Assembly: GCA_951406725.2 (NCBI GenBank)
Contig: OX597816.1
Span: 14,756,001-14,820,000, forward strand
Length of the DNA stretch: 64,000 nt
Source: Octopus vulgaris
Lineage: Eukaryota
Direction: 5' to 3'
In this document: in pieces, positions 2,705-58,580 of the stretch
Position numbering within the stretch: position 1 is the first letter of the stretch
Layout: the number at the start of each line of letters is the position of its first letter
Notes under the pieces: generated by a model
What the model was told of the DNA's origin: nothing
What the model saw: the letters and a program-made list of their open reading frames with translations, nothing else
Database searches by the model: none
Made by a program: the position numbers and the translations under genes

Positions 2705-3632
2705 ACCTATCCATCTATCTATCTATCTGTCTGTCTGTCTACCTATCTATCTATCTGTCTACCTATCTATCTACCTGTCTACCTATCTATCTACCTGTCT
2801 GTCTACCTATCTATCTATCTACCTACCTATCTATCTGCCTGCCTGCCTGCCTGCCTACCTACCTACCTACCTACCTATCTATCTATCTACCTACCTATCT
2901 ATCGATGTGCCTATCTACCTACCTACCTACCTACCTACCTATCTATCTGTGTGTCAGCTGTCATTTTGATATCAGCTCATAATGTTTGGTTAAAAACTTA
3001 CCTAAATCTGCATTCGTATAAATGTTTTTTTCTCAATTCTCTGTCACAAGAATGATATGTGTCAACATTTTAATATTTATTTACTCTCTTATAGCAAAGA
3101 CCCACACAGCTGCTGTCTTTGTTAGTCTGACAGATTACTATTTTTTCTAAGTTATTACAATATGTCAGCATCACCATAAATGAACATAAAGTTATCTTCT
3201 TCAAACAGAAAAAAGAAAAATAAGTTAATTTACAGTTAATATTTTGTCATTTCTACCAGTGAACTGTGATAGCAGCTGCCGCCCATATATTCCCAATATT
3301 CTTACGTCAGCAATGAAAGTAAGATTCTTCGAGACCGCCGCCTTTGAATGACCATAAATATCAATAGCAATGACGTCTTATAATATATTCAATAGCTTTA
3401 TGTACTTTTATAGAGATTCTCAGCATGAGAACACATTTTTTCGGTGCAGGTGTGGCTGTGTAATAATATTGACAATACGTTTGCTACCCAGCTACATGGC
3501 TCCAGGCTCAGCACTTCTGTGTGGTACTTTGGCAAGTAGCTTCTGCTATAACCCTGGGCCAACAAAAGCCTTGTGAGTGAATTCAGTAGACAAAAACTGA
3601 AAGAGCCTCTTCATATATATATATATATATGG

Positions 3633-3885
3633 ACATCTCCAACTAGCAAGTCATGCTACTCCAGACTGAAGACGAGTAAAATTCAGAAACTAGTCTCTGG
3701 ATGCTGGTTTAGCTGCGTTAGGGGTGCTTATCTCCCCCTTGTAAACATAAGGACACAGGAAATGTGTCAAGGCCGACAGGAAGCAGTGCTGCTTCCTAGG
3801 GCTAAATAGCAGTAGTATTATTCCCTTCATGGGACTGTCACATGAAGTTGGCAGCATGCAACTACATTATCATATCACTACTGCA
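3633..3885 (+). mobile_element. Diverged single copy of the same HHR/retrozyme-like family as the 52.8-kb array
   Basis: Same order of HHR, hairpin gacaca-ggaaa-tgtgtc, hairpin aggaagcag-tg-ctgcttcct and tail stem gcagtagt/actactgc; starts after the (TA)n of a SINE. Confidence 0.75.
3643..3707 (+). ncRNA. Type I hammerhead ribozyme
   Basis: tccaga-CTGAAGA-c-gagt-aaa-attc-a-GAAA-ctag-TC^tctgga; 6-bp stem I, palindromic stem III ACTAGT, GUC site after 3695. Confidence 0.85.
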
Positions 3886-3950
3886 TAAATCTCTCTGAGA
3901 GATTTAGAAATGTATTATTTCTACATACATACATACGTATATACATACAT

Positions 3951-9338: not shown

Positions 9339-11265
9339 AGGCGGCGAGCTGGCAGAAATGTTAGCATGCCAGGCGAAATACTTAGCGGTATGTCATCTAT
9401 CGCTACGTTCTGAGTTCAAATTCCGCCGTGGTCGACTTTGCTTCTTAATATTTTCGGGGTCGATAAATTAAGTACCAGTTGCGTACTGGGGTCAATCTAA
9501 TCGACTGCCTCCCTCCTCCAAAATTTCGGTCCTTGTGCTTGGAGTAGGAACAATTATTATTGTTGTTGTACAAGGCAGCAAGCTGGCAGAAATGTTAGCA
9601 CACGAGGCTAATGTTCTGAGTTCAAATTCTGCCAAGGTTGACTTTGCTTTTCATCCTTTCGGGGTCGATAAATTAAGTACCAGTTGCGTACTGGGGTCGA
9701 TCCAATTGACGGCCCCCCTCCCCTCCCCCAAAATTTCAGGCCTCGTGCCTAGAGTAGGAACAATTATTATTGTTGTTTTACAAGGCAGCAAGCTGGCAGA
9801 AATGTTAGCACGCGAGGCTAATGTTCTGAGTTCAAATTCTGCTAAGGTTGACTTTGCTTTTGCATCCTTTCGGGGTCGATAAATTAAGTACCAGTTGCGT
9901 ACTGGGGTCAATTCAATTGACTGCCCCCCCAAAAAAAAATTTCGGTCCTTGTGCCTAGAGTAGGAATGATTATTATTGTTGTTGTACAAAATGGCAGGCT
10001 GGCAGAATTGTTAGCAAGCCAGGCGAAATGCTTAGCAGTATTTCGCCCATCGCTACGTTCTGAGTTCAAATTCCGCCAAGGTCAACTTTGCCTCTCATTC
10101 TTTCAGGATCAATAAATTAAGTACCAGTTGCATACTGGGATTGACATAATTGACTAATTCCCTCACCCAAAATTTCAGGCCTTGTGCCTGATAGAAAACA
10201 TTATTATTATTGTTGTTGTCGTAGTTTGTAATTACTATCACCAAGGGGCAAGCTGGCAGAACTGTTAGCATGCTGAGCGAAAAGCTTTATGGTATTTCGT
10301 CTGCCACTATTACCCCAAGGTCAACTTTGCCTATCATCCTTTCAGGGTTGGTTAAATAAGTACCAATTACACACTGGGGTCAATGTGATCGACTTAACCC
10401 ACTCCTCGCAAATTTCAGGCCTGGGGCCTATAATAGAAATGATGATTATTATTATTATTATTATTATTATTATTGTTGTTGTTGTACTTCTTCTTGGTGG
10501 TGAGTTGGCTGAATTGTTAGCACATGGGAAAAAATGCTTAGCAGCATTCTGTCCATCTTCACATTCTGAGTTCAAATTTTACCAAGGTCAACTTTGCCCT
10601 TTATCCTTTCAGGGTTGATATTTGAAGTACCAGTGAAACTCTGGGGATGGTGTAATTGACTAATTCCCACCCCAAAATTTCAGGCCTTGTGCCTTTAGTA
10701 GAAAGGATTATTATTATTATTATTATTATTATTATCATTACTATTATTACTACTACTACTACTACTACTACTACTGAAGGTGGCAAACAGACAGAATCAT
10801 TAGCGCACTGGATGAAATGCTTAGCGATATTTCATCTGCCACTATATTCTGCAATTAAATGCCACCAAGGTTAACTTTGCCATGCATCCTTTCACACTTG
10901 ATAAATTAAGTACCCGTAAAATACAGGGGTCAATGTAATCAACTCATCACCTCCCCACAAAATTGGCTACCCTTGAGGCAAAATTTGAAACCATTATTAT
11001 TATTATTATTATTATTATTACTACTACTACTACTATGTGAAGGTGGAAAGCTGGCAGAATCGTTAGCATGCTGGACGAAATGCCTAGTGGTATTTCACCC
11101 ATCCCTACATTCTGAGTTCAAATTCTGCTGAGGTTGACTTTACCTTTCATCCTTTCAGGGTCAATAAAACCAGTTAAACATTGGGATTGATGTAATCGAC
11201 ACATACCCACCTCCCTCAAACTGCGCTTGAGGTAAAAATTTAAAATAATGATTATTATTATTATT
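9339..11265 (+). mobile_element. Cluster of about 8 head-to-tail SINE family B copies (tRNA-like head + Nin/Deu-like core) separated by (ATT)n
   Basis: Repeated 'ggcgagctggcagaa...gagttcaaattccgcc...gactttgcctttcatcctttcggggtcgataaattaagtaccag'. The Nin-domain resemblance is from memory. Confidence 0.82.
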
Positions 11266-13885: not shown

Positions 13886-14045
13886 ACATTATTTACATTT
13901 GACAGATATTTGTCCTCATCTTGTTAACACAACATTTCAGCTGATATACCCTCCAACCTTCATCAGGTGTCTTGAGAAAATTTCAAACTTGGGTTCTTAG
14001 TTCTTATTCCTAAGGTATTTTCGATGTTATTACTATTATTATTAC

Positions 14046-15188: not shown

Positions 15189-15990
15189 AAATGATGATGA
15201 TGATGACGATTCTTATAAACAAGAGATTGTGCTCTTACAAGATTCATCAGTCTGATATGGTAGCCTTAACAAGGCCAAAACACCACAGTATCCCAAAGTT
15301 CCCATATACATTGATGTTTCCATAGATGAACACACACATCAATGAAAGGAAGGAAGTGCTCTGTTGATACAAAAACCACAGTGATCAGCAAATGATGATG
15401 ATGATGACGATTCTTATAAACAAGAGATTGTGCTCTTACAAGATTCATCAGTCTGATATGGTAGCCTTAACAAGGCCAAAACACCACAGTATCCCAAAGT
15501 TCCCATATACATTGATGTTTCCATAGATGAACACACACATCAATGAAAGGAAGGAAGTGCTCTGTTGATACAAAAACCAGTGATCAGCAAATGATGATGA
15601 TGATGACGATTCTTATAAACAAGAGATTGTGCTCTTACAAGATTCATCAGTCTGATATGGTAGCCTTAACAAGGCCAAAACACCACAGTATCCCAAAGTT
15701 CCCATATACATTGATGTTTCCATAGATGAACACACACATCAATGAAAGGAAGGAAGTGCTCTGTTGATACAAAAACCACAGTGATCAGCAAATGATGATG
15801 ATGATGACGATTCTTATAAACAAGAGATTGTGCTCTTACAAGATTCATCAGTCTGATATGGTGGCCTTAACAAGGCCAAAACACCACAGTATCCCAAAGT
15901 TCCCATATACATTGATGTTTCCATAGATGAACACACACATCAATGAAAGGAAGGAAGTGCTCTGTTGATACAAAAACCACAGTGATCAGC
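15189..15990. repeat. Tandem repeat, 4 x about 201 bp, near-identical
   Basis: Units start at 15189, 15390, 15589 and 15790. Confidence 0.95.
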
Positions 15991-16020
15991 ATATTCACAT
16001 TAAAATCTGCCAGAAGGTAT

Positions 16021-51190: not shown

Positions 51191-52917
51191 TATATATATA
51201 TTTATATATATATATGCATTATATACACTATATATATTCCTAATAAGAGGACACAAAACTGCAGTATGTCATCTAATTTAATGATTCTGTAACAATAGAA
51301 AATAGCTGCTCCTTCACATGCTGGTTTGGTGTTCTATCCTTGAGCTTGTTGCTTAACCCTTTTGTTATCATGTTTCTACTGAAATATGATAACAAAAGGG
51401 ACAGGTGTGACACAAAACTTGCTTCCCAACTATGTGGTTCCAGGTTCAATCACGTAGTGTGACACCTTGGGCAAGTGTCTTCTGCTATAGCCTTGGGCCA
51501 ACCAAAGGCTTGTCAGTGGATTTGGTAGACGGAAACTGAAAGAAGCTTGTTGTGTATATATGTGAAAGAGAGAGAGAGAGAGAGAGAGAAATAGTGTGTG
51601 TCTGTGTGTCACCAGTGCTTGACAACTGGTATTTGTGTGTTTACATCCCAATAACTTAACAGTTCAACAAAAGAGACCTCAAGTACCAAGATTTTCTAAA
51701 AAAAGTACTGAGGTCAATTCATTTGACTAAAATTTCAAGGTGATGCCCTAGTATGGCCGCAGTCCAATGACTGAAACCAGTAAAAGATAAAAAAAGAAAA
51801 GGAAGATGAAATATAAAAGGAGTCTCAACATAGGTACATAAGCTTGTTCCAGAGCCCTGTTCATAAACCCTACCATACTGCATTTCCAGCATAGAGAGAA
51901 GAGCCTAAAAGTAACCTCTGCCGGATTCCCATTAAAACAGAAATGAACAACACACATAAAAAAAGATAAAATTCTAAAAACAGACAACCATAAACAACCA
52001 ATCACATTGCATCTTTGTAGTCATGTGTTTATGACTCACCATAGCTGTTGTTTACTCTTTTACTTGTTTCAGTCATTTGACTACGGCCATGCTGGAGCAC
52101 CGCCTTTAATCGAGCAACTCGACCCTGGGATTTACTCTTTTGTAAGCCCAGTACTTATTCTATCGGTCTCTTTTGCCGAACCGCTAAGTAACGGGGACAT
52201 AAACACACCAGCATCGGTTGTCAAGCAATGCTAGGGGGACAAACACAGACACACAAACATACATGCACATACATATATATATATATATCATCATCATCAT
52301 CATCATATATATATATACATATATACGACAGGCTTCTTTCAGTTTCCGTCTACCAAATCTACTCACAAGGCATTGGTTGGCCCGAGGCTATAGTAGAAGA
52401 CACTTTGCCCAAGGTGCCACGCAGTGGGACTGAACCCGGAACCATGTGGTTGGTAAACAAGCTACTTACCACACAGCCACTCCTGCGCCTAATGTTTACT
52501 AATTTTTAATCATTAAAAAAGAAAAGATTTTTGTAATGAAATGAGGGTGTGATGAATCCAGCGCTTAGCCAGGTAAACAAGCAAGGCCTAGACTTTTTAC
52601 AGTTGTGGAAATTATTGAAAATATTTAATCTCCAGATGTATAGGCTCCCAGTTTATCCTCATGTATAGTCTGCTTGCATTTTATTGATCAAAGTTCAGCT
52701 CAAATAAAATGGAGTTTAATCTCTCTCTCTCTTTTTTTTTTCTTTTTCAGAAAATCGTTTGTTATTTAATTTCATTATTTAGAGAACCATACTTCACATT
52801 GTTGTGCAGCTACTGTTTATACCTTGTTCAGAGATTTATTATTGCTCGTTTACACTTTTTCATCACTGGAAAAAAGATATATGTATTTGCATTGGGACCA
52901 CTTCGCATCGAAGACCA

Positions 52918-52976
52918 GTGATTGTCGTGCACTGACGACGGGTAAATACCCAGAAACCTGGGTCCGTGCGTATCAC
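52918..52976 (+). ncRNA. Type I hammerhead ribozyme (array unit 1)
   Basis: gtgat..cgtgca-CTGACGA-c-gggt-aaat-accc-a-GAAA-cctggg-TC^cgtgcg.atcac; predicted GUC cleavage after 52964; the stem I pair next to the core is mismatched (A.C). Confidence 0.8.
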
Positions 52977-53166
52977 TTCAGGTCAACAATGGAAAGGATG
53001 GCTTCCCTTTTGCAAATACTGATAGGGCACAGAAAGTGTGTCAATAGCCAGCTGGAGAAGATCTTCTCCTGGGGCCACAAGCTACACTTTTTCGAGATCA
53101 GTAACTTTCCGTCACTGGAAAAAGGAAATATGTATTTGCATAGGGACCACTTCGCATCGAAGACCA

Positions 53167-53225
53167 GTGATTGTCGTGCACTGACGACGGGTAAATACCC
53201 AGAAACCTGGGTCCGTGCGTATCAC
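53167..53225 (+). ncRNA. Type I hammerhead ribozyme (array unit 2)
   Basis: Same motif as unit 1; predicted cleavage after 53213. Confidence 0.8.
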
Positions 53226-53415
53226 TTCAGGTCAACAATGGAAAGGATGGCTTCTCTTTTGCAAATACTGATAGGGCACAGAAAGTGTGCCAATAGCCAG
53301 CTGGAGAAGATGTTCTCCCGGGGCTACAAGCTACACTTTTTCGAGATCAGTAACTTTCCGTCACTGGAAAAAGGAAATATGTATTTGCATAGGGACCACT
53401 TCGCATCGAAGGCTG

Positions 53416-53474
53416 GTGATTATCATGCGCTGACGAGGGGTAAATACTCAGAAACCCGGGTCCGTGAGTATCAC
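53416..53474 (+). ncRNA. Type I hammerhead ribozyme (array unit 3)
   Basis: gtgat..atgcg-CTGACGA-ggggtaaatactca-GAAA-cccggg-TC^cgtgagtatcac; palindromic stem III ACCCGGGT; predicted cleavage after 53462. Confidence 0.82.
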
Positions 53475-54801
53475 ATCAGGTCAACGTTGGGAAGAATGAC
53501 CTCCCTTTGCAAATACCAATAGGGCACAGAAAGTGTGCCAATAGCCAGCTGGAGAAGATGTTCTCCCGGGGCTACAAGCTACAGTAGCATCCACCCTTAG
53601 TGGTTAGCCACATTTAAGTGGCAAATATACTTCACATTGTCATGCAGCTACTGTTTATACCTCGTTCGGAGATTTATTATTGATTATCATTTATATATGG
53701 GTATCTCATTATGTATATTTTTGTTTCCAGTTATTTGGGAAATAAAAAAAAAAGAATTTAGCAAAACAATGGCCTAGTGGTTAGGGCAGCGGACTCGCGG
53801 TCGCAGGATCGCGGTTTCGATTCTCAGACCGGGCGTTGTGTGTGTTTATTGAGCGAAAACACCTAAAAAGCTCTACGAGGCTCCGGCAGGGGGTGGTGAT
53901 CCCTGCTGTACTCTTTCACCACAATGGCGGTGCCCCAGCATGGCCACAGCTCAAGAGCTGAAACTGGAAAAACAAAAAAAAAAACAAAAAACAAAACAAC
54001 GGTTTAATTAATCTGAGGTTTTAAACTAATTATATAAATTTATTTGAAATTTTGAGGGAAAGTTTTAATTTAGATCACTTTAATGCAAGTTTGAAGCATG
54101 GAACTAAGGGTTGTCTCAGGTTAGTTGGCACCAAAACGGTTAGTAGGCAGTAATAATAAAATAATAATGCTCAGGTGCACCACAACGTGTCAAAAGTGCA
54201 TATAAAGTATATTTCAACATAAAATGCCCTAATTATCATTGCATAGCCACAGGTCAACATGATAACTGAACAAACCTGATATCAAGGGCAATCTAGCCAT
54301 GGCCATCAGGTCCTTCCTTCCTTTTTCTAGGGTATCCAGCCATAGAAACATTGCCAGATCAGACTGGGCTTGGTGCAGCCTTCTGGCTTCCCAGACCCCA
54401 GTTGCATCATCCAACCCATGCCAGCATGGAAAGTGGACGCTAAACGACGATGATGATGATGATGATGATGAGTAGTTTAATAACTTAGAGAAACAAACAT
54501 AATTTCACTCATTGGACCGTGGCCACGCTGGGGCACAGCCTTCATGGATAGAGTCAAACAAATTGACTCTCTTATTATTTTTAAGTCTGGCATCTATTCT
54601 ATTGGTCTCTTTGTCAAACTGCTAAGTAACAGGAATGTAAACAAACTGACACCAGTTGTCCAGTGATGGTGGGGCATGCACACAGGCACACACACAGACT
54701 GGCACACACATAAAATGGGCTTCTTCCACCTGTCATCTACTAAATGCACTAACAAGGCATTGGATAGCCTGAAATTTTAGTAGAAGACACTTGCCCAAGG
54801 T

Positions 54802-56049: not shown

Positions 56050-58580
56050 TGTCCTTGGGAGTAGCCACTTTGTCCTTAAACATATTCAAAGTGTCTTTGG
56101 ATACTTCTAATATCTTCCGACTTATCCAATTGTCCTTGAATAATTCTAGTATGCCCTTGAACATACCCAGTGTATCCTTGAATAATTCTATTGTGACCTT
56201 GAACATACACAGTGAGTCCTTGAATAATTCTAGTATGTCCTTGAACATACCCAGTGTGTCCTTGAATAATTCTATTGTGACCTTGAACATACACAGTGAG
56301 TCCTTGAATAATTCTAGTATGCCCTTGAACATACCCAGTGTATCCTTAAATAATTCTAGTATGCCCTTGAACATACCCAGTGTATCCTTAAATAATTCTA
56401 GTAAGCCCTTGAACATACCCAGTGTGTCCTTAAATAATTCTAGTAAGCCCTTGAACATACCCAGTGTGTCCTTGAATAAATCTAGTATGCCCTTGAACAT
56501 ACCCAGTGTATCCTTAAATAATTCTAGTAAGCCCTTGAACATACCCAGTGTGTCCTTGAATAATTCTAGTATGCCCTTGAACATACCCAGTGTATCCTTA
56601 AATAATTCTAGTATGCCCTTGAACATACCCAGTGTATCCTTAAATAATTCTAGTATGCCCTTGAACATACCCAGTGTGTCCTTGAATAAATCTAGTATGC
56701 CCTTGAACATACCCAGTGTATCCTTAAATAATTCTAGTAAGCCCTTGAACATACCCAGTGTGTCCTTGAATAATTCTAGTATGCCCTTGAACATACCCAG
56801 TGTATCCTTAAATAATTCTAGTATGCCCTTGAACATACCCAGTGTATCCTTAAATAATTCTAGTATGCCCTTGAACATACCCAGTGTGTCCTTGAATAAT
56901 TCTAGTAAGCCCTTGAACATACCCAGCATGTCATTGAATAATTCTAGTAAGCCCTTGAACATACCCAGTGTGTCCTTGAATAATTCTAGTATGCCCTTGA
57001 ACATACCCAGTGTGTCCTTGAATAATTCTAGTATGCCCTTGAACATACCCAGTGTGTCCTTGAATAATTCTAGTAGGCCCTTGAACATACCCAGTGAGTC
57101 CCTGAATAATTCTAGTAAGCCCTTAAATATACCCAGTGTGTCCTTGAATAATTCTAGTAAGCCCTTGAACATACCCAGTGTGTCCTTGAATAATTCTAGT
57201 ATGCCCTTGAACATACCCAGTGTGTCCTTGAATAATTCTAGTAGGCCCTTGAACATACCAAGTGAGTCCCTGAATAATTCTAGTAAGCCCTTAAATATAC
57301 CCAGTGTGTCCTTAAATAATTCTAGTATGCCCTTGAACATACCCAGTGAGTCCTTGAATCCTTCTAGTAAGCCCTTAAATATACCCAGTGTGTCCTTGAA
57401 TAATTCTAGTAAGCCCTTGAACATACCCAGCGTGTCCTTGAATAATTCTAGTAAGCCCTTAAATATACCCAGTGTGTCCTTAAATAATTCTAGTAAGCCC
57501 TTAAATATACCCAGTGTGTCCTTAAATAATTCTAGTATGCCCTTGAACATACCCAGTGAGTCCTTGAATAAATTCTAGTATGCCCTTGAACATACCCAGT
57601 GTATCCTTAAATAATTCTAGTAAGCCCTTGAACAAACCCAGTGTGTCCTTGAATAATTCTAGTATGCCCTTGAACATACCCAGTGTATCCTTGAATAATT
57701 CTAGTAAGCCCTTGAACATACCCAGTGTGTCCTTAAATAATTCTAGTATGCCCTTGAACATACCCAGTGTATCCTTGAATAAATCTAGTATGCCCTTGAA
57801 CATACCCAGTGTATCCTTAAATAATTCTAGTAAGCCCTTGAACAAACCCAGTGTGTCCTTGAATAATTCTAGTATGCCCTTGAACATACCCAGTGTATCC
57901 TTGAATAATTCTAGTAAGCCCTTGAACATACCCAGTGTGTCCTTGAATAATTCTAGGAAGCCCTTGAACATACCCAGTGTGTCCTTGAATAATTCTAGTA
58001 TGCCCTTGAACATACCCAGTGTGTCCTTAAATAATTCTAGTATGCCCTTGAACATACCCAGTGTGTCCTTAAATAATTCTAGTATGCCCTTGAACATACC
58101 CAGTGTATCCTTGAATAATTCTAGTATGCCCTTGAACATACCCAGTGTGTCCTTGAATAATTCTAGTAAGCCCTTGAACATACCCAGTGTGTCCATAAAT
58201 AATTCTAGTATGCCCTTGAACATACCCAGTGTATCCTTGAATAATTCTAGTATGCCCTTGAACATACCCAGTGTATCCTTGAATAATTCTAGTAAGCCCT
58301 TAAATATACCCAGTGTGTCCTTGAATAATTCTAGTAAGCCCTTGAACATACCCAGTGTGTCCTTAAATAATTCTAGTATGCCCTTGAACATACCCAGTGT
58401 GTCCTTAAATAATTCTAGTATGCCCTTGAACATACCCAGTGTGTCCTTGAATAATTTTAGTATACCCTTGAACATACCCAGTGTGTCCTGAATAATTTTG
58501 ATATTCAGTATGTCCTTGGCTATATCCAATGTCTAATATCCAATATGTCCTTGAACACATTCAGTGTATCCTTGGACAAA
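56050..58580. repeat. 42-bp minisatellite (two 21-bp subunits), about 56 units
   Basis: Unit ccttgaacatacccagtgtgt-ccttgaataattctagtatgc; degenerate edges; one extra A near 57570. Confidence 0.95.

Follow-up and report, generated by a model that had tools for sequence, protein, structure and literature searches.

The analysed stretch of Octopus vulgaris DNA (64,000 nt, called the window below) contains copies of non-coding retrozymes of about 350 nt whose insertions carry a Penelope-type (PLE) signature, and the conserved fold at their 3' end likely tells a borrowed Penelope reverse transcriptase (RT)-endonuclease where to start. The view of a conserved structured RNA family, put forward in a preliminary description of the locus, is borne out: six sister families, A to F, keep the same predicted fold.

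The retrozyme copy at 3633-3923

The preliminary description had reported a lone copy at 3633-3885, distantly homologous to the units of an array 49 kb away. The two loci are homologous, as a global alignment of 3630-3900 with 53385-53680 scored 175.5, compared to 107.0±7.7 (maximum 134) for 500 dinucleotide shuffles; this score is far above the shuffles, and the homology is therefore real despite blastn giving only one 21-base match. However, the copy is not a lone one. It is one of many copies of a family named A, sister to the family of the array, named B, and the structured element ends at 3923 instead of 3885. Its parts are the following, all on the forward strand.

3633..3923 (+), 5'-truncated copy of the family A retrozyme that retains about 290 nt of the 351 nt in a unit, with a TA run on one side and a TACA/CA run on the other
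3633..3748 (+), long rod (extended helix I) capped by the hammerhead, according to predicted folds; the truncation removed the outer 5' arm
3666..3695 (+), type I hammerhead core, a motif from the sequence and family tallies, with predicted cleavage: CUGANGA at 3666-3672, GAAA at 3686-3689, palindromic helix III at 3689-3694, predicted cut after C3695
3673/3685 (+), C·A apposition at the base of helix II
3752..3768 (+), hairpin H1, in which the sequence of the first five pairs hardly varies across all six families
3771..3803 (+), two-part hairpin H2, with an inner stem that covaries between families
3809..3884 (+), tail multiloop with closing stem 3809-3816/3877-3884 and hairpins H3 (3822-3834), H4 (3835-3854, 8-nt loop) and H4b (3863-3874, one pair broken here)
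3860..3872 (+), site S1, the inner of the two fixed 3' ends, placed here by projecting the family A value (about +165 to +175 from the cut) onto the copy
3887..3923 (+), hairpin H5 together with the AT-rich terminus and site S2, the outer fixed 3' end, at which the copy terminates

The motifs listed previously were found at this locus, namely the stem I arms (3660-3665/3696-3701), the stem II arms (3674-3677/3681-3684), ACTAGT (3689-3694), the downstream hairpins (3752-3768 and 3778-3797) and the tail stem at 3809-3816/3877-3884, which matches 53581-53588/53647-53654 as claimed. Some of the quoted pairs are nevertheless owed to mutations private to this copy, namely pair four of stem II, which has 3 bp in family A, and the two innermost pairs of the 9-bp hairpin, which has 7 bp in family A. 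Compared with the majority sequence of family A, the copy agrees at 271 of 289 positions; taken by itself, it is an unremarkable, decayed insertion. Its 3' module (3745-3915) folds with a z score of -4.7, none of 200 shuffles being equally stable. A scan of the 64-kb window with Rfam at gathering thresholds gave no hit, which places this hammerhead variant below the curated thresholds, and a distant-mode comparison found no match in the phage collection.

The second locus is an insertion of family B.

52789..53682 (+), insertion of family B made up of a tail fragment (52789-52844), two deleted units (52863-53111 and 53112-53360) and one unit whose full tail stops at S2, with the hammerhead cores located at 52932, 53181 and 53430

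The 'flank' of this array had been reinterpreted as the 3' tail of the element. It does belong to the element, but the true unit is 357 nt long and not the 249-nt period, which results from a 109-nt deletion between short repeats in the 357-nt unit. The 249-nt unit was rejected as a subfamily; its deletion junction occurs twice genome-wide, both times inside the window. Units 1 and 2 are identical at 216 of 224 positions and each resembles unit 3 at 197-203 of 223, a similarity that suggests a later local duplication of the first two. The stems earlier quoted for the array are present, but the perfect 8-nt palindrome occurs only in unit 3 and gggt/accc only in units 1-2. Other tandem arrays in the window are located at 56131-58497 (42 nt x 56), 15189-15991 (201 nt x 4, 99% identical) and 9407-10016 (210 nt x 3).

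Six families of non-LTR retrozymes

Copies continue upstream into their own tail, so that the units could be closed at 351 nt (A) and 357 nt (B). The units of all six families measure 351-361 nt, are non-coding and are 48-70% identical (A versus B, 51%). The genome-wide collection of homologues proposed earlier yielded, in the 2.8 Gb searched, 2601 first-look candidates for family A and 3071 for family B, which are not copy numbers; 40 of the family A candidates were scored, and the near-full-length matches among them showed 87-91% identity. Families C and D were traced from weak matches in the retrieved loci, and E and F were recovered with a covariance model, also proposed earlier, and profiles built from A-D. 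Since the model was run on the window and the loci in hand, the count of at least six is a lower bound, and further families exist.

Mean identity of the copies to the family majority is about 93% for A, 96% for B, and 89% each for C and D, and these four families occur mostly as monomers or partial tandems. The best matches of family E are 99-100% identical and lie in (TA)n as tandem arrays with a 360-nt period, inverted arms and as many as about 11 units (e.g. L097:426-785 and L293, G000:C14:72705500-72711500). This near-identity implies a very recent spread; family E is still spreading.

The elements are thus non-LTR retrozymes, a known kind, with a hammerhead motif in each unit, a non-coding unit of the length given above and head-to-tail tandems (360-nt period in E). 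Several side relatives were also noted. A further distant relative of the unit (L246:1902-2201, profile E 4e-8) has a hammerhead-like region in which helix II is much longer and helix III self-contained; L089:285-496 and L235:331-396 are pieces of an A-like family, about 75% identical; and L061:6134-6345 is a fragment of a subfamily resembling B, in which U4C is combined with a U·U at the base of helix II.

Insertion footprints

On the 3' side the insertions stop at fixed points, on the 5' side their ends are scattered, and both inverted 5' pieces and partial tandems occur. Two fixed 3' sites were found, about 45-55 nt apart, one inside and one just beyond the conserved 3' module. Among 343 mapped 3' ends, S1, in the tail multiloop at +155 to +194 from the predicted cut, accounted for 115 and S2, immediately beyond H5 at +205 to +245, for 179, making 294 in total; the other 49 include truncations and self-matches of the rod, and the S1:S2 ratio depends on the query. 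We infer that S1 is the first reverse-transcription start. Of the 74 inverted insertions, 69 carry one S1 and one S2 end, whereas independent choice would give at most half. This two-ended pattern is the tail signature of PLEs, the tail of which is described as present on one end only (available part of Craig et al. 2021, PMC8557442) and the reverse transcriptase of which starts at two internal sites bounding the genomic tail (Frangieh et al. 2024, PMC11167929). The octopus insertions combine two fixed 3' ends and a one-end tail with 5' truncation, an inverted arm and partial tandems.

Family E ends at +178 or +221 from the cut (43 nt apart), and a young PLE of the same genome ends at +143 or +189 from its own hammerhead (46 nt apart), both into (TA)n. 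(TA)5 was present within 40 nt after S2 ends in 14/33 copies of A, 28/57 of B, 12/19 of C, 1/20 of D, 10/11 of E and 3/7 of F, with a background of 5.8%. Family D thus shows no (TA)n preference, and because of this difference in target one partner cannot serve all families. Most copy ends lie in microsatellites, which mask target-site duplications.

The location of the two fixed 3' ends, within the module or directly behind it, lends positional support to the idea of RT recruitment raised in the preliminary description. Nothing in the present data points to the role in ligation that was proposed beside it. The main rival reading, to which we give a clearly minor share of the probability, is that the units are mobilised by PLEs but the fold serves stability, processing, export, ligation or transcription of the RNA, while AT-rich sequence pairing with the target sets S1 and S2 by itself. 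Both sites are indeed AT-rich in all families and in the young PLE, the ends of the three autonomous PLEs examined are AT-rich and do not match the fold, and retrozyme circles are described as generally highly self-paired (PMC7229834, in the part available). Against this, other AT-rich stretches of the units are unused as ends, and the position of S1 and S2 relative to the helices is kept across families that are only 48-70% identical.

Search for an autonomous partner

A young autonomous PLE beside locus L060 has a 775-aa frame with matches to RVT_1 and GIY-YIG, and all 150 scored matches to its endonuclease were 100% identical.

L292 (G000:C1:27840000-27849999) and L061:1859-4183, young PLE, 4271-nt tandem unit with two overlapping frames

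The first frame, a 430-aa ORF1, has no Pfam match; the 775-aa RT/GIY-YIG frame lies in the -1 frame and has no initial Met. Runs of A and T in the overlap suggest a frameshift. Like that of family E, the hammerhead of this PLE has U4C together with a U·U at the base of helix II. As a parent of the retrozymes it was rejected, the 4271-nt unit having no significant match to the six units (best model E 0.24). A second young PLE family (L297, L298) has a 753-aa frame and, in the 3' region, a hammerhead-like motif with a U3-A8 core; L299 and L300 belong to an older PLE family, and all four loci end near (TA)n. In the window, other minimal hammerhead-like motifs at 13966 (-), 42185 (-), 22151 (+) and 22108 (-), the last two forming an inverted pair, are probably ends of different PLE families.

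The three autonomous PLE families, two of them represented by these four 3' regions, gave no significant sequence or model match to the units. Genome-wide, each PLE protein query had more than 10,000 first-look candidates, and in no fewer than two PLE families identical or nearly identical copies are numerous. No RT and GIY-YIG frame attached to the repeat was found by tblastn of a PLE protein against 151 loci or in the 15 young family E loci.

These figures bear on the improbable alternative that the copies derive by truncation from the pseudo-LTR ends of unsampled autonomous PLE families. Three families are few beside more than 10,000 candidates per query, most copies of A-D are monomers or partial tandems with PLE-type ends, and among 57 retrozyme families of Xenopus, 24 match known elements, PLE ends in nearly every case (Li et al. 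2026, in the part available). However, the 5' extensions of the octopus copies run into their own tail and close a unit of 351-361 nt, the 15 young E loci contain E units only, up to about 11 in tandem, and PLE coding sequence was detected in four of the 151 loci, in none of them joined upstream of a unit.

Conservation of the fold outside the ribozyme

A 26-pair structure of the 3' module was 91% paired on 20 copies of A-D; nine pairs had two-sided changes (reached by 14 of 500 shuffles), in 33 cells (reached by none of 500), the first hairpin of D being misaligned in this test. A table of helices anchored by hand gave two-sided changes in 25 of 50 pairs and pairing in 288 of 290 cells, with H3 in E and H4b in E and F unanchored and left out. 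This table is circular, since its arms were chosen by eye, and is superseded by an unbiased test, in which confident pairs were predicted in each single family and carried through an alignment made from sequence only.

In the latter, 207 of 251 doubly changed cells outside the rod still pair (null 96.5±7.3, maximum 119), which upholds the earlier claim of compensatory change outside the ribozyme. Within the rod the figure is 237 of 394 (null 161.6±9.4), and for A to B alone 22 of 30. The cells are non-independent, as they stem from six related lineages with each pair counted both ways. One-sided changes outside the rod break the pair in 143 of 200 cells and keep it in 57, an excess that is in some part due to misalignment. 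Families E and F, both found with A-D models, keep seven of seven tail-stem pairs. As circles, the six units fold with z scores of -5.8 to -10.1 (30 shuffles each), and the ribozyme strand is the one with the more stable fold in 6/6 families. At pairs predicted on both strands, G·U was counted 126 times versus 84 for A·C (binomial p 0.005, with non-independent cells).

A literature search, including full text, found no account of these families or of a conserved non-ribozyme fold in retrozymes, although such motifs may be contained in the work on PLE hammerhead dimers (Lünse et al.), in the supplement of PMC7229834, or in Repbase or Dfam. A conserved non-ribozyme fold bracketing the presumed reverse-transcription starts, as predicted from sequence and modelling, thus appears to be new.

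That the covariation arose merely at the DNA level, as the arms of inverted repeats in an inert satellite corrected one another while the RNA was under no selection, is very improbable: the copies do decay (about 4-11% from the family majority) and the 84 A·C appositions are not rare, but the G·U excess and better folding on one strand, the multibranch architecture with its loop lengths kept, the covariation in the core of F and the current spread of family E all speak against it.

The hammerhead motif

In all six families a type I hammerhead motif is located at the tip of the long rod. Helix III is palindromic in all six majority sequences (for D, in a 30-copy alignment), which fits cleavage as a dimer (PMC4209133, in the part available). 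The base of helix II is C·A in A, B and C, variable in D, U·U together with U4C in E, and G-C in F, and the core of F covaries, U3-A8 replacing C3-G8. Precedents for U·U and U3-A8 are given in the available parts of PMC3088659, PMC7229834 and PMC4209133. In A, B and C the C·A replaces the usual hammerhead pair G10.1-C11.1, a change that may make cleavage slower or prevent it altogether. In the part available of Li, Clavereau & Pollet 2026 (bioRxiv 10.64898/2026.07.22.740005), eight of nine Xenopus retrozyme dimers failed to cleave in vitro, and a PLE did not need the ribozyme to insert in vitro (Frangieh et al. 2024, PMC11167929).

The 5' ends of tail-selected copies do not pile up at the predicted cut, as 0/30 of A and 0/30 of B lie within 3 nt of it, and 35 of these 60 copies (21/30 A, 14/30 B) cross it. 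The template is therefore either uncut or re-joined at the cut bond. Family D has 10 of its 30 5' ends no more than 11 nt away from the cut, but the query used for it itself started near that point. Family B-like contigs, mostly of the 3' half, were detected in four sequencing runs merely guessed to be RNA and were not counted as evidence.

Comparison with known elements

Animal non-LTR retrozymes are described as non-coding elements of 150-450 nt with a type I hammerhead, present as monomers and tandems, with units of about 330-390 nt in mussel and axolotl (PMC7229834, in the part available). The octopus units are alike in size, hammerhead and tandems. For the animal elements, the parts available of two papers propose PLE mobilisation from co-occurrence and end homology (PMC7229834; bioRxiv 10.64898/2026.07.22.740005), and contain neither a between-family fold outside the ribozyme nor a two-ended PLE tail mapped on inserts. 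In the same limited texts, circles and cleavage are demonstrated for the animal elements, whereas both are proposed for the octopus units, and many Xenopus families match known PLE ends, whereas the octopus units match none of three PLE families. The accessible portion of the squid genome paper only counts hammerhead matches.

With endonuclease-bearing PLEs, as far as the consulted portions go, the units share partial tandems, inverted 5'-truncated arms, a one-end tail and (TA)n targets (PMC4209133, PMC8557442, PMC11167929), and with the hammerheads of PLE pseudo-LTRs the palindromic helix III and the U3-A8 core variant (PMC4209133). In contrast to the PLEs described there, they have no ORF, are GC-richer and heavily structured, and have a tail of about 45-55 nt versus 30-40 nt. 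The PLE hammerheads in these accounts have an extra unpaired base followed by G10.1-C11.1, whereas the octopus units lack the extra base and have a mismatch at that pair in most families. The U·U of family E resembles U10.1·U11.1 (Perreault et al. 2011, PMC3088659) and the axolotl HHR_Amex2 (PMC7229834), both accessible in part; no counterpart of the C·A of A, B and C was found in the partial accounts consulted of hammerheads with a mismatch at the base of helix II.

Proposed mechanism and significance

The following route is proposed. A tandem or read-through transcript would be cut once per unit by the hammerhead acting as a dimer through its palindromic helix III. A host ligase would then circularise the monomer, a step that we rather favour by analogy (PMC7229834, in the part available), the alternative being an uncut linear multimer. 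A PLE protein would next bind the 3' module (H1 to H5), nick AT-rich DNA and prime at S1 or S2; that the module performs this binding and priming job is, in our estimate, only slightly better supported than its negation. Finally, copying would run through the cut site and the unit junction, so that inserts arise truncated, in tandem or inverted, carrying an S1 end and an S2 end.

On a broader and more tentative reading, which we consider possible but rather unlikely, these retrozymes would be a long-lived independent lineage of RNA parasites and not offshoots that arose repeatedly from PLE ends. A portable structured module of about 170 nt would capture Penelope-type RTs and fix both priming sites, and it would have been retained over successive bursts while partners were switched, the targets of family D being different. 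If this is true, the module, which family E would still be using, is a defined RNA signal that directs insertion by PLEs.

Retrozyme papers have relied on co-occurrence and end homology, and in the in vitro PLE study the binding region was mapped for one element only (PMC11167929). The insertion footprints link six retrozyme families to the PLE mechanism, and the covariation outlines a candidate signal for the PLE RT around both start sites. The 360-nt family E spreads alongside intact frames of a young PLE, which makes the question directly testable.
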